From Trichodelitschia bisporula (taxonomy: Eukaryota), in the NCBI GenBank assembly GCA_010356995.1, contig ML996691.1, forward strand, positions 998,174-1,062,173: a stretch of DNA of 64,000 bases, written 5' to 3'. Made by a program: the position numbers and the translations under genes. The first letter of the stretch is position 1; the number at the start of each line of letters is the position of its first letter. Positions 25,416 through 49,959 of the stretch are shown here, one piece after another. The notes beneath the pieces were generated by a model that ran no database searches, had not been told where the DNA came from, and was given only the letters and a program-made list of their open reading frames with translations.

Positions 25416-26379
25416 GCGCCCTTCAGTGCGCTTCACTTGACTCGTCACGCCCCTCGGCATAGTTCGCTTCTGGAAGTGGGTATGACAGGGGCAGGGGCGA
25501 TGGCACTCTCGTTTTGATTTGTATATTCTGTTTTTGGGCGCTGTGGCATCTTTATTCGGCAGCAGGTGGAGTCGGGCATCGTGGGATACTTCCGGCACAC
25601 TTGGGCATTGGCGTGTTACAGGCAAGCAAGCGGCGGCAGCACATATTTAGGATACCTCTTTTCCTTCATCGATACCATGGCTTTCTCGTCTTTCCTAACA
25701 GCATCCCTTTCAACCAGTGTACTTCTCAGCTTCCGTTCAACATACCTCCCATCCTTCTCGGTCTCATCATTTTAACTTGGAATCATTGTACCTCGTATCT
25801 TGTTTGATTACCGTCTCTATCCGTCGTCGTCGAGGCTGGAAGCTCCATTGCTTTCGTGGGGGTAGAATGAGCTGGGGATGCTCGGGTCCGTTCTGGGGTT
25901 GACAGGAGTAGTTGATGCAATGATACATGACACGGGATGCGTGCGATGCGTCGTCATCCTCTTTCAGTGGAAGCATTGCAAGCCACCGGTGTTATGGACC
26001 ATCAAGTCAACGGCCCTGGTAAACCCCAGATCGGACCCGAGCCTCCCCAGCTCCCATCGTAGGAATAGAATGAGATCGGGAGTCGGATTGCAAAAGCACA
26101 AGGAGCGTCGACGGTCTCGTGACGGTTTCTCTCCATCTCTCTAGCATATCCCGATTAGGGCCATGATCATTCATCTTGTCACCCATTCCACCGTCAGTAC
26201 CGCCCCAGTTACACCAGATCACCAACCCAAATCGCAGATCCCCCAGCAATCACTCCAACACCACAGAACCTTCCAAAAACCCGAAGGATCAAACCCGATC
26301 CCAACCCCTTGCAACTACCCAAAAAGAAAGTCCATCCCAGATGCCCATTCCCCACATGCATATCCCGCCGTACCAAAAA

Positions 26380-26473: not shown

Positions 26474-27192
26474 GCTTAATGAAACCCCTTCTTCCCCCTG
26501 GGTTCGTGAGTGGAGACCGGGAGAAAGGACGGGAGGCTGGAAAGTGGCGACGCGCGGACTAAGATCGGACGAGGTCGTTATCTTAGGAAACAGCCTTGAG
26601 TACAGACCGGACTTGCTGTAACGTCCATGCTTGCCTTTTGATCCTCTTCTTTGGGTGGATCGAGGGTGGCGTACGCTGAGAAATCTGGTGAAGGCGATCG
26701 ATGTTGCGGTTTCATGATCACAATCAGAAACGGCGCTTCTTTCAATTCGAATAGCGCATTAGGCATGGCCCATTCGAGCGTATTCAAGATGTAGCCCAGT
26801 CCGTCTGGTGCAGCTACGGATATTTCTAGAGCGCCGGAAGAATCGTCAAGGATCAAAAAACGATCCGCCCAGGCCACATTCTATGTCTTGTTCAAAAGGC
26901 CATGCCGTCTCAGCATACAGTGAGACGGAAATGAAGGCTAGTTCTTCAACAAACATCTCATTATCTCAGACACCGTCGCCAGCTTGATAGAGGACGTTGA
27001 AATCTTAGTGCACAGACAAAGTCATCCATTTCGGGCAAGGAGTCAGTTCGTAGCATTTTGCATTTTTGGAATTCTCATATCCCCGTTGTTCGCCTCATGC
27101 AAGTTGCAGTGCCGTAAGAAACCAGGCTCCGTCCGAGTGAAAGGCAAAAAAGGAAGACAGGACCCATCAGAATCTCCCACACAACCACACGC

Positions 27193-28231
27193 CTAGACCT
27201 TGAAACCACGCGAACGTCTCCGACCACGGGCACGCTCGAACTTGCGGCCCTTGCTCTCAACGTAAGGCTTCTTGTGCGAGTGGGGACCGAAGCCGAAGTG
27301 CTTGACGGCCTCGCGGGCGTTCTTCGGGCCGCGGAGGAGCAGGGTGTTGGCACCGGTGGGAGAGCGCTGCACTGAGTTAGTTCTGATTGGATGAGGTTGT
27401 CCGAGATATTCACCTGCGCAAGCTCGTCCAGGGTCAGGCACTCGCCACCAGCCTTCAGGATGCGGGCACGGGCAGTCGCGGTGAAGCGCATGGCCGCAAT
27501 GGAGAGCTTGGGAACCTCGAGCAGGCTGCTGAGATTAGTTTTCATTCACATACGCTCAACATATGGACGTACCGAGTGTCATCAGTGACCTTGCCGACAA
27601 CGACGATCGTCTTGCCCTCGTGGGTCTTCGCGGTGTGCTCGTTGGCAGCAGAGGCCACGATGCGGGACAGGGACAGAGGGGGCCCTAGCAAGCTTTATTC
27701 AGCGCCCGAACTGCATACAGCAGTGGACTCGCTTACTGTTGATCTTGGACATCTTAAGACGCCTCAGCACCACCTGGTTGAATGGGCTGTCCGTGCCTGC
27801 ACAGATGTTAGCGTTGGCAATGATATATTTCACTCGGGACCTACGGCGCGCAAGAAAAGCATAGAGCTTGACCAGGAGCTTGACATACGGGTCATCGCTC
27901 TTCGGGGCCTTGCGGTGCGAGTTCCGCACGTGGTGCTTATCCAGACTGTCCAATGTTAGCTACGAGGTGGTTGACGGAAACGGTCGTTCGCTGGAACTCG
28001 GAGCAGCCAGCCGCGTTGACACTAGGTTCAAAGATCGTGCTTCGAGGAGCCATATTTGCAAAGGTGAAGCCATGTTCTCGAGAGAGACCGGTGGCCGCAA
28101 ATTTGGCATCGAGAGCACGATTCATCGCCAATTGTGCCCACAAAGGCCAGTGTCTGCAGCGAGCTGGTTGTCCGAGGTCCAAAGAATATCCGAGTAGACG
28201 AAGCATTAGACAAAACGTACTCAATACCCAT
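27193..28231 (-). CDS. RPL18: 60S ribosomal protein eL18, 5 introns
   Basis: Spliced product [51 protein letters not shown]...[19 protein letters not shown]. Intron 1 is 27946-28220. Confidence 0.97.
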
Positions 28232-28867
28232 GGCAACTGTGGTTGGCGATTGTCGGCGGAAACTGGAGTGGGTGTGGAATTGAAAAAGAGACTCAGTGTG
28301 GAGGAGGATTTCGCTCGGTTATCTCCCGCTCCGTGGGCTTGGCACGCGTTTGTGCTTTGATGCCTGGCGCGTGTGGCTTTGTGCCTTGGCGCCTTTCGAT
28401 ATCAGATTTACTGCCCCGAAGGCTTCCATGCACTCGAGACGTGCATGGGCTGCCTGCATTCTCGTGTCTATTCAAATTATGCAGTGCACAACTTCGACCG
28501 GCAGAGCTTATCATCAGTTATAGCGGCAAGATACGTCTGACACCATTTCATATTACAGAGAATAATATGCAACACGACCTCTAAGGGAAGCCTGTCTTGA
28601 TCGACAAAGTCGACGCTCCGAGTGATAAAGTACAAGTTCCATGTAGACCCCCGATCGTCATCTATCCTACTCATCGATCGCCGTAAAACGCCCGTAAATC
28701 CATCTGACCGAGCCCAATGCAAGTACAAGGCGCTAGAACGTGTGCATACCTCCGTTGCCCGCATGTGAGAGAGAAAACAGAAGTGACGGTTCCTGCGGTG
28801 GAGACATCGTGAAGGAGTGGGCAACAAGCTACAAAGCTGTTGATGGTTGCTGAAGGGTATCTACTGT

Positions 28868-29980
28868 CTAGATTTCTTCTGTCGGGGGCGCTAAGGAAAG
28901 GAATAAGTCCCTGGCGAGCTCATAGCTATACCAGGATGCCGCCATGCTAGGTGCTACCTTCAGGAGATTGGGTACGATGCCCTTGTAGAGCCCACGCCAT
29001 CCCTCCAGTTTGATGATCGACACGATAGCATTGGTGACGGAGCTGTAATGGTAGCCCATTCCAGACATGGTGTTCACTTGGAACCGCCGACGCAGCACGT
29101 CACTGAGTACTTATCAGCAAAGACCCCTCCGGTTGCGTCCAAATAACTTACAAAGGGTACGTGCAAGTCTGTGCAACAGCCCCAGCAATAGCTCCAGCCG
29201 CAAGCTTGCCAAGTCCCACAGGGTCCTTCTCGCCCGGACGAGTGAAGTACTGGCGCATGCTCTCATACACCATGAAATTCAACCCGACCTGCTTATGTCA
29301 GCCACAAGTGCAAAAGGTATACAAGAAGGTACACACATAGGGTGCAACTCCGGCGATCGTAGGAACAATTCCACGGTACAGGGCGGTGATGCCCCCTTCC
29401 GTCTTGTACATGATCACCATTGATTCCCACATCCCTGGCAATTTCTCCTTAGCGCGATCTCCGAGCTCCTTGAACGAAGCTGACTGAATCGACAACCGAG
29501 TCCGGACAATGTCGAGCGGGTAGGTGAACGTTACAGAGGTGATACCGGCACAAGCGCCGCACACAAGCCGCTGCGCGGCATTCAGTTTCGCCCCGGGTGT
29601 GTTCTCGAAGTACTGCGCATTTTAGTCAAATGCCCCTTGGCCGTCAAGGGTTTACGTACGCGTTTGTAGAAATTGTAGCTCCCAAACTGTACGGCGGAGT
29701 ATGGGACGATCCGTATGCAATTGGTGCCGTTCCCTGCCATGAACCCCCGCATGCCTTCCTCGCGCCACATCTTCATGAGGGCCTTTGGAACTGACATCTT
29801 ATATGCGTCCCGCCCAGCACTCTGGACCTGGAAGAGGATCTTTAAGCGCTCCAAGGGAGAGACGACAGTGCGCGATACGGCGCCGGCGATGCCGCCTGCA
29901 GTGAACGATGCGACTACCGGCTGCGACAACGCTAAACGTAGTTGCAGCAAGCGCTGAGGTGGCGCAGTGTCTGCCGACAT
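28868..29980 (-). CDS. Mitochondrial carrier (SLC25), YPR011C/SLC25A42-like, 3 introns
   Basis: Three carrier repeats with P-x-[DE]-x-x-[KR] signatures: SPLERLK, YPLDIVR and YPFDVLR. Confidence 0.93.
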
Positions 29981-31872
29981 ATTGGCGGGGACCTTGGTCT
30001 GTAGAGGCTTAGTCGGCAAAGATCGTGATAGGAGGCGAAGAAAGAGGGGGTGTGGTGTAAGAATATTGAACGTACATTGTCGAGTGTCGACATAAAGGCG
30101 AAGCTTCGTAGATGTCCAACGGCGCACGGCTTTTCTGTGGCTGCGACCCACTTCGGGGCAGAAGCGGCTCCCAGGGTACCGCGACTTCTCCTTAACAGGT
30201 ATGCCTTGTATGCGCGTCAGGGAAGGCGCGACGGTGCTTTGTCGACAGTGCTCGTCAACACAACCAGAGCTACCGGAGCGGGGGGTTCGACGGGAAGGAA
30301 CGGGAGCTCATGGGAGATTGCCGAGATGATGTCGCGCGCGGCGAGCAAAAGTGACAACTCCTGAGGACACGGTGTGTGCGGAGAAGGAGGAAGGAGTGAT
30401 GGGGTCCCATACAAGGAGTGGCGGTTGCCGAAAAAAAGATGTGGCGAGGCTGGACAGTAGGTTGCGGGGAAGTTTAAGGATTGCGCAATGGCGAGCGTGA
30501 CTGTAAGTGTGATGTGGAGATGCGCGATCGCAGGTGGGCTCGTAAGGTTCTTGGGAGGGTGCGTGCTTTGACTGCAGCACATCCACCGCGTTTGGGCTAC
30601 CGTATTTGCGGGGGTCTCGCCGAAAACTTCGCCGGGTGCCGGCTTGGGCCGCCTGCGGCATTCACTATCACTGCTTTTCCTGTGCCAAGCCGTTGGACGG
30701 ACAGCGACAACTGATATCGAACTATCAACCACAAGCTGCACGACCGAAGCTGCTACCGTACTTAGGGTCCTCGTGATGCTCGCTGGCCAGTCAAGTCTCG
30801 GTTGAGGGACATGTCACGATGCCTCTTGGGAGACAGGACAGGCTGACTCGTCCAAACTCCAAAAGAGCCCATTTCCGGACAGGATCCTAACCGGTCTAAA
30901 CTATTGACCGCTTCACATCTGCTGGCTTCCCAAGTTTCGACTTCGCCACGCATACTTCATATCCAGTCAGTGATTGCAGCCGCTGGAGTGCTTGCAGATT
31001 GGTGGTCCCGGCCGACAAGAACATGGCCGAGGGGCATCAAATCAAGAGCCATGTCAGGAAATCAGCCGCAGTTTATAGCCAGTCGAATGCGCCGCTACTT
31101 TCCCGTGGACAGTGTTCTAGCGCGAGTCGTTTCAACATCTATCCTTCGTGTGTCCAGGATGCCCCATCATTTGTATGTGCTTTTGCGATAAACGTATGCA
31201 AGTCATGCTGTTGGGTTCTGAGTGCAACTTATGTTTTCTCAGTCTCGAGTTAAAGAGTTCCTCGGGATGCTTTACGATGCCTGGAATTAGCTTGAGGTGG
31301 ATGGTGTATGCAGACCAAGACGTTCTGATCTGAATGTTAGGGACTGTAAGACGGAAGATAGGCTTTGACTGAAGTAGCTTTCACCTTGGTGAGGTGTAAA
31401 GCAGTGTGACCTCGCCATCCCACCGTTGGGCCGATCACAACGAGATATCAGATGTCCGACCTTGGAGTCACGGGAAAGTGGTCCTACGTCGTCCGAAGAG
31501 TCTCAAGTACAAAGGATGTCTGCATCTGAAAGCGAAGGTAGAAAAGTTAACAGAGCACAAGATCGGGCGCATATCTACATGGCGGTACCCGTGCAATGGT
31601 CGTCCGTATCGATCTATAGGTAGTAATAAGCAGCCTACGCCTTGCCAGTTAGGATAGCTGAACAGGTAGCCTTGTGTGAGGGGCCTGAATTCATGTAATC
31701 AATATGCAAGAAGTGACAAGCAAGTGTGGCTCAGCAGGTCCAGAGATAGGCAGCCCAAAGGGCATCATCCTGACGTGACAAAGCATTGGAGAGTGAAGTA
31801 TCTGTAGGAGAAGGAGCGTCACAGACTGAGGTTCACCTTCCAAGCTGTCACCTTCCAGCGGTTTCGAGGCCT

Positions 31873-49718: not shown

Positions 49719-49959
49719 AACGCCGAATTACTCTACTCAGCACGCATGATTTTCAGCCTGGACATATGTACTCCATCGTTCCAGTTTCCAAAGGAGACGA
49801 AGGAACCAGCACCTTTCTTTAGTTATAGAGGAAGCGAAACTCCAGTCAATAATAACTAAAGAAAGGTGCTGGTTCCTTCGTCTCCTTTGGAAACTGGAAC
49901 GATAGAGTACATATGTCCAGGCTGAAGATCATCCGTGCTGAGTAGAGTAATTCAGCGTT
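49719..49959. repeat. Long inverted repeat: 108-bp arms, 4 mismatches, 25-nt spacer
   Basis: 49719-49826 is the reverse complement of 49852-49959 at 104 of 108 positions, with no indels. Confidence 0.97.

Follow-up and report, generated by a model that had tools for sequence, protein, structure and literature searches.

The first intron of the eL18 (RPL18) gene in the 64-kb window (the whole stretch of DNA that was analysed, 64,000 nt) was predicted to fold, over nearly its entire length, into one long rod-like RNA structure. By thermodynamic modelling this structure is both real and strong, and its size exceeds that first described. As modelled, the rod comes closest to a zipper stem of very large size within a ribosomal-protein intron. 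Our preferred reading is that it is a lineage-specific, self-collapsing intron expansion of the zipper-stem type, which would keep the intron spliceable and at the same time slow its splicing. This reading is tentative, with a probability of about 0.45; its observed parts are the fold, its place relative to the splice signals, and RNA-derived contigs in which intron 1 is retained.

The gene model, read from the sequence, placed eL18 on the minus strand with six exons and five introns; coordinates are given in Table 1. The borders of introns 2-5 were confirmed by joints in the RNA-derived contigs, which extend as far as 28250, that is, over exon 1. The spliced coding sequence gave an eL18 protein of 189 amino acids, residues 5-189 of which showed 100% identity with a database protein named as Trichodelitschia bisporula; the next-best database matches, from Venturia and Tothia, were 88-90% identical. 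On this evidence the window belongs to that dothideomycete or to a very near relative of it. Intron 1 has GTACGT at its 5' end and CAG at its 3' end, with a CTAAC branch site between them. An earlier note on this DNA had described the intron as much longer than others, and within the gene this was borne out, introns 2, 3, 4 and 5 measuring 48, 52, 47 and 47 nt, respectively, compared with 275 nt for intron 1.

Table 1. Positions of the eL18 gene parts, of the predicted rod in intron 1 and of the stop codon reached when this intron is retained.
Feature	Position in window	Strand	Basis
eL18 start codon (ATG)	28231..28229	-	
eL18 exon 1, micro-exon (ATG + 8 nt = 11 nt)	28231..28221	-	sequence, spliced CDS translation
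eL18 intron 1, 275 nt, GTACGT...CTAAC...CAG	28220..27946	-	sequence
Basal extension, 5' strand, intron nt 9-27, beginning 8 nt past the 5' splice site	28212..28194	-	MFE
Core rod, 190 nt (intron nt 40-229)	28181..27992	-	MFE; helix probabilities 0.87-1.00 for most helices
Side hairpin at three-way junction, GCCU/GGGC, intron nt 74-85 (12 nt)	28147..28136	-	MFE, P 0.78
Apical part, GGCCA/UGGCU then UCUC/GAGA, intron nt 125-153	28096..28068	-	P 0.93-0.96
In-frame stop if intron 1 is kept, 67-aa product from the ATG	28030..28028	-	ORF 28028..28318
Basal extension, 3' strand, intron nt 258-274	27963..27947	-	MFE, flank duplex test
Branch site CTAAC, intron nt 262-266	27959..27955	-	
eL18 exon 2	27945..27845	-	RNA contigs, translation
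Rest of eL18 (introns 2-5, exons 3-6, stop codon included)	27844..27193	-	RNA-contig joints, translation

The earlier note had claimed a rod of about 190 nt in this intron and had proposed a comparison of its RNAfold energy with shuffles as a check. On the transcribed strand, the 190-nt stretch had a minimum free energy (MFE) of -82.7 kcal/mol compared to -56.1 ± 4.2 kcal/mol in 200 dinucleotide shuffles (z -6.29), and none of the 200 shuffles folded as well; the claim therefore stood. The helices listed in the note were also those of the MFE structure, including the GCCU/GGGC side hairpin, the 8-nt bulge and the apical UCUC/GAGA helix. The span required revision: the 190-nt core folds, but the rod is not confined to it. 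In the MFE structure of the entire intron (-101.5 kcal/mol, z -5.38, 0/200 shuffles as good), nt 9-274 of the 275 form a single rod of 94 pairs, 88 of them Watson-Crick and six G-U. The outer stem of the core joins nt 39-52 to nt 216-230 through 13 bp, whose pair probabilities, predicted at 0.87-1.00, derive from thermodynamics only. The helices of the rod are broken every 4-9 bp, and the apical tetraloop is UCUC (nt 138-141).

Outside the core, the rod continues as a basal extension made up of two helices, nt 9-17 / 266-274 (P 0.99) and nt 24-27 / 258-261 (P 0.95). Both the CTAAC branch site and the CA of the 3' CAG fall within the 3' strand of this extension. Summed over pairs that join the 5' segment to the 3' segment, the pair probability was 16.0, compared to 4.3 ± 3.7 in shuffles, with 0/25 shuffles as high. 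The duplex between the two flanks had an energy of -16.6 kcal/mol, and a duplex as good was obtained in 20/2000 cases when the 5' flank was shuffled and in 90/2000 when the 3' flank was shuffled; the flank pairing exceeded chance modestly. The predicted pairing probability of the branch site was not above that of shuffles (0.64 vs 0.63). The idea that eL18 introns in general have a helix closing over their branch site was considered and rejected, as two or fewer of 25 shuffles were as high in only 8/38 introns, and the branch sites of one group of relatives (type C, see below) were mostly unpaired.

RNA-derived contigs that span this region came from two runs, X3 and X4, of one sample. The X3 contig (1089 nt) was joined across introns 2-5 and was unbroken over 27844..28250, and the X4 contig (453 nt) ran unbroken from exon 2 up to 28250, covering all of intron 1 as well as exon 1. 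Since they are spliced at introns 2-5, these contigs represent cDNA, and transcripts that keep intron 1 yet are otherwise fully spliced do exist. The contigs bear on the existence of such transcripts, not on RNA levels or on the spliced share of intron 1. The joint between exons 1 and 2 was not listed in any run; its 30-nt 5' side is easily lost in assembly. Two further runs, X5 and X6, from other organisms, gave exon coverage only, with nothing across intron 1.

According to the preferred reading, intron 1 would be a lineage-specific, imperfect inverted repeat that folds into one long rod in the pre-mRNA. The core rod begins 38 nt past the 5' splice site, and 34 nt separate its end from the branch A (nt 265). 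Once folded, the core would remove about 190 nt from the path and leave a linker of about 72 nt, giving an effective intron of ~83 nt, which is near the 47-52 nt of the other eL18 introns. A zipper-like core of this kind could keep a 275-nt intron spliceable in a short-intron fungus, and the rod would show how a fungus with introns of ~50 nt can carry one of 275 nt. The weaker basal extension would have to melt before the branch site could be recognised, and for this reason the removal of intron 1 is probably slowed. Slowed removal would account for the transcripts that lack introns 2-5 but contain intron 1, which would reach a stop after 67 codons. We infer that the rod forms in vivo and that it helps or slows splicing there; the inverted repeat may have arisen at the DNA level and have been kept because it is self-folding.

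Zipper stems are structures of S. cerevisiae introns, such as that of RPS17B, and were defined transcriptome-wide by Rangan et al. (2025, PMC12350175). The definition asks for a helix of 6 bp or more to which in vivo probing gives high helix confidence, and its criteria were derived for the S. cerevisiae spliceosome. The core rod of intron 1 lies within all of the positional limits stated there (38, 34 and 72 nt), whereas the basal extension (nt 9-27 / 258-274) lies outside the positional criterion and covers the branch site. Like the yeast zipper stems, the rod is found in a ribosomal-protein gene. It differs from them in its size, the core having about 69 bp and the whole rod 94 bp compared to a minimum of 6 bp, in taking up nearly the whole intron, in its host, a filamentous fungus with introns of ~50 nt, and in being a predicted structure.

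A second parallel is provided by the RPL7B intron, where a zipper stem and an alternative conserved structure are reported to compete in the portion of the preprint available (Granas et al. 2025, bioRxiv 10.1101/2025.03.14.643126). As presented there, a zipper stem is tied to the autoregulated splicing of a ribosomal-protein transcript, a combination also proposed for the eL18 rod in its boldest reading, that of an eL18-sensing switch (see below). The protein and the organism are different, however, and no alternative structure was identified for the eL18 rod. The graph distance that separates the 5' splice site from the branch point was also compared with shuffles. It was 18, compared to 16 ± 7 in shuffles, and across 39 introns there was no difference by the Wilcoxon test (p = 0.52). 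This test is uninformative, since the predicted folds of any sequence bring its ends together.

Related genes were collected from metagenome contigs with a full-length eL18 query, which returned 341 relatives; 80 of these were kept (L001-L080), 12 of which were intron-less at the place of the first intron and so cDNA-like. The first intron was found at three positions within the first six codons: after ATGG (type A), after ATGGGTATTGA in the window, L003 and L029 (type B), or after ATGGGTATCGATCTNG (type C). As judged from the sequences, these three positions point to intron sliding or to independent gains at the micro-exon. Type A comprised 37 loci, 35 with exon 1 and 31 folded, with L035, L059, L063 and L067 dropped as apparent duplicates (same intron length and same flanking sequence). 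Type C comprised seven loci, six of them folded, L022 being nearly identical to L018. The other loci were truncated or unclassified.

The lengths of the first introns were 76-345 nt for type A (n = 31) and 136-150 nt for type C (n = 6), and a long eL18 first intron was general among the sampled filamentous ascomycetes. Excluding the window, introns of at least 223 nt had z scores of -3 or lower in 7/9 cases and shorter ones in 0/28 (60 shuffles each), a contrast that is partly built in, as the power of the z score grows with length. With that length bias, the extra length of the long eL18 first introns was self-folding across the sampled genes. Strong structure in the first intron was not general among the sampled relatives: type C introns individually had z scores of only -0.7 to -2.5, and RNAalifold on seven type C introns gave no consensus pairs. 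In sequence, the window intron resembled none of the 38 other eL18 first introns taken from metagenomes, the best of these comparisons being an 11-nt match (z 2.3). The 171-nt intron of L003, which occupies the same position as that of the window, was rod-like too (z -4.3 with 100 mononucleotide shuffles); it had no sequence likeness to the window intron.

A motif common to 12/31 of the folded type A introns, from another fungal lineage, was found in this comparison (L005, L012, L013, L017, L021, L025, L030, L039, L065, L066, L069 and L076). It consists of a 6-bp helix, with RRGTRG past the 5' strand, GA ahead of the 3' strand and the branch site no more than 30 nt away, and with variable hairpins between the helix strands. 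The helix showed compensatory variants, among them GTGTGC/GCATGC, GTATGC/GCATAC and ATATGC/GCATAT. A composite pattern for the motif gave 12 matches in 435,886 scanned bases, all of them in intron 1 and on the sense strand. There were no matches on either strand of the window, and a resemblance between the window's 'GCCTTTGTGGGCACAATTGG' and the block conserved in type A was rejected on this result and on sequence comparison. An Rfam search of nine motif loci at E values up to 1 returned nothing, and the terms RPL18, L18 and eL18 had no mentions in the main texts, as far as available, of two surveys of fungal RNA motifs (PMC5640933, PMC8216456). The motif is a candidate new RNA element, and it is possibly an eL18-responsive site of that lineage.

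The most serious alternative to the zipper-stem reading is feedback by the protein product, which the earlier note had proposed as a splicing-feedback element. Here, binding of free eL18, either to the rod or to its three-way junction, would lock the basal helix in place so that it covers the branch site and the 3' splice site. Intron 1 would then stay in the transcript, whose reading frame ends after 67 codons and which would be unproductive or degraded. We regard this explanation as doubtful. It is consistent with the retention of intron 1 alone in the RNA contigs, with a rod base that covers both the branch site and the 3' splice site, and with a first eL18 intron that was long in 37/37 extracted introns of other fungi. 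The conserved motif in the 12 loci of another lineage also suggests that eL18 genes in general use this intron as a site of regulation. However, the binding of eL18 to the rod is putative. The rod had no sequence relatives among the 38 other first introns, RNAalifold gave no shared structure in the seven type C introns, and the conserved type A motif is absent from the rod. Retention in the contigs shows neither a level nor a response to eL18 dosage, and the equally good folding of the antisense strand counts against feedback.

The background that had been cited from yeast, namely an Rnt1-cleaved stem-loop in RPL18A and autoregulatory introns, agrees with the available text of the two papers concerned (PMC13232506, PMC4937481). 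Rpl18 is reported to repress splicing of the RPL18B intron by about 3-fold, an effect that needs a predicted intron structure; this autoregulation has been known since 2026 (Granas et al. 2026, PMC13232506), and the structure had been predicted by Hooks et al. (2016, PMC4937481). Both elements occupy an intron that lies at the 5' end of their eL18 gene, and unspliced transcripts occur in both, as seen by RT-PCR in the reported yeast work and in contigs here. On the other side, the RPL18B element sits in the middle of its intron and, as reported, falls outside the zipper-stem definition (PMC13232506), and its structure is conserved only in Saccharomycetaceae and Candida, as reported (PMC4937481). 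The RPL18B element has no Rfam family.

A stronger form of the feedback explanation, that the rod is this lineage's eL18-sensing switch, in which surplus eL18 would stabilise the basal helix and so bring about retention and an early stop, is rather doubtful. If it were true, fungi would have repeatedly rebuilt the same eL18 feedback loop, in the same intron, from unrelated RNA structures; this view follows from setting the rod beside the yeast RPL18B structure and the unrelated type A motif with its three-way junction. Nearly all documented cases in which ribosomal-protein genes are autoregulated by intron structure come from budding yeast, and eL18 has been among them only since 2026. A 94-bp rod in the eL18 gene of a filamentous ascomycete that covers its own branch site, in the one intron kept in assembled transcripts, is a testable case outside yeast. 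A feedback role for the rod is a live possibility, and any function of it is putative.

A neutral origin was also considered, in which the rod would be the relic of a decayed DNA-level inverted duplication, or of a MITE-like insertion into an already long intron, and would be tolerated only. The strand symmetry of the fold favours such a relic. The earlier note had claimed G-U pairs that work on the sense strand only, a claim that did not hold, as the antisense strand of the 190-nt stretch folds too (-88.4 kcal/mol, z -6.80) and G-U pairs make up 4/69 pairs on the sense strand and 5/68 on the antisense strand. Alignment of the two arms of the rod gave two G-U-type and two A-C-type transitions, eight transversions and 56 gap columns, so that the mismatch types had no sense-strand bias, and the asymmetry between G-U and A-C, used as a strand test on the rod, gave no signal. 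Strand specificity of the fold was not supported. In the MFE structure, one A-C 1x1 mismatch was found compared to six kept G-U pairs, which speaks against a relic, although weakly (one-sided binomial about 0.06).

Also in favour of a relic are the lack of conservation of the rod sequence and the presence in non-coding DNA of the window of two unrelated rod-forming repeats, at 49719-49959 (96%) and 25869-26053 (75%). A DNA-level origin of the rod is plausible because this genome makes foldback DNA in non-coding regions, and because the antisense strand folds equally well and two more inverted repeats occur within 64 kb. The rod resembles fungal MITEs in its size of ~200 nt, its foldback shape, its strand-symmetric fold and the foldback repeats nearby. 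It differs from them in having no target-site duplication, the flanks of 27992-28181 being without a common direct repeat, in having no second copy within the 64-kb window, and in complementarity that runs past the core into the flanks with the splice signals, where an insertion would not bring such pairing. These three features lead away from a plain transposon insertion, although none of them settles the matter. Overall, a merely tolerated relic appears unlikely, and even then the rod would still illustrate the self-folding extra length of long eL18 first introns.

In a coarse scan for hairpins (2554 frames of 200 nt), the frame that overlaps the rod, which omits 9 nt of it, ranked 25th with a residual z of -2.09, and two other loci in the window scored far above it. 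The near-perfect inverted repeat at 49719-49959 lies in apparently non-coding DNA and has 108-nt arms that are 96% complementary, a 25-nt loop and a GC content of 0.44; at an MFE of about -193 to -201 kcal/mol, it forms the strongest hairpin in the window. The 185-nt inverted repeat at 25869-26053, also in apparently non-coding DNA, has 84-nt arms that are 75% complementary and sits about 1.1 kb past the 3' end of the eL18 coding sequence; the word TAGAATGAG is present on either side of it and may be a target-site duplication. There was no sequence kinship among these two repeats and the eL18 rod.

The possibility that the rod is cut by a nuclease of double-stranded RNA, whether an RNase III of the Rnt1 type or Dicer, had also been raised. 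Cleavage would destroy the unspliced pre-mRNA or the lariat, or would produce small RNAs. An Rnt1p-cleaved hairpin in the yeast RPL18A intron was reportedly described by Danin-Kreiselman and colleagues in 2003, and that hairpin is likewise in an eL18 intron. The yeast Rnt1p signal is an AGNN-type tetraloop capping a stem, but the apical loop of the window rod is UCUC, not AGNN. The cutting of an RPL18A intron stem-loop by Rnt1p is cited in the available text of both yeast papers (PMC13232506, PMC4937481), and an imperfect rod of 94 bp is long enough for RNase III and Dicer enzymes. The interruption of the helices every 4-9 bp and the assembly of an intact intron-containing transcript argue against a nuclease substrate; we consider this explanation improbable.

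That intron 1 contains a separate non-coding RNA, for example a snoRNA or another stable RNA, is highly improbable. Some ribosomal-protein introns are reported to host snoRNAs (PMC4937481), but a search of 27000-29000 against Rfam 15 at E values up to 10 gave only two chance-level matches, both outside the intron, which leaves the earlier suggestion of an intronic ncRNA unsupported, and no C/D or H/ACA box arrangement was seen on reading the intron sequence. Nothing identified the rod as a known element, and the literature search found no paper on eL18 intron structure in filamentous fungi.

An unusual arrangement was seen in L003, where the first 230 nt of a metatranscriptome contig (L003:1-230) contain the 3' part of the intron as far as the branch site, then a T, and then the 5' end of the intron (GTAAGT...), after which the contig runs through the whole intron into exon 2. 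This pattern looks like read-through of a lariat branch in which the branch A was read as T; alternatively, it may represent a tandem duplication or an assembly artefact. The lariat reading would suggest that, in another species, a rod-like eL18 intron persists as a stable lariat after excision.

The upstream neighbour of eL18 is a mitochondrial-carrier gene at 28868-30307, on the minus strand. The T. bisporula database entry joins this carrier and eL18 in one protein, and it is one of at least eight database proteins, from several fungal classes, in which a carrier (PF00153) is fused to eL18 (P0033, P0035, P0063, P0066, P0113, P0114, P0116 and P0118). These fusions show a conserved gene order together with a recurrent annotation error, the micro-exon and the long intron of eL18 having probably been missed by gene callers.
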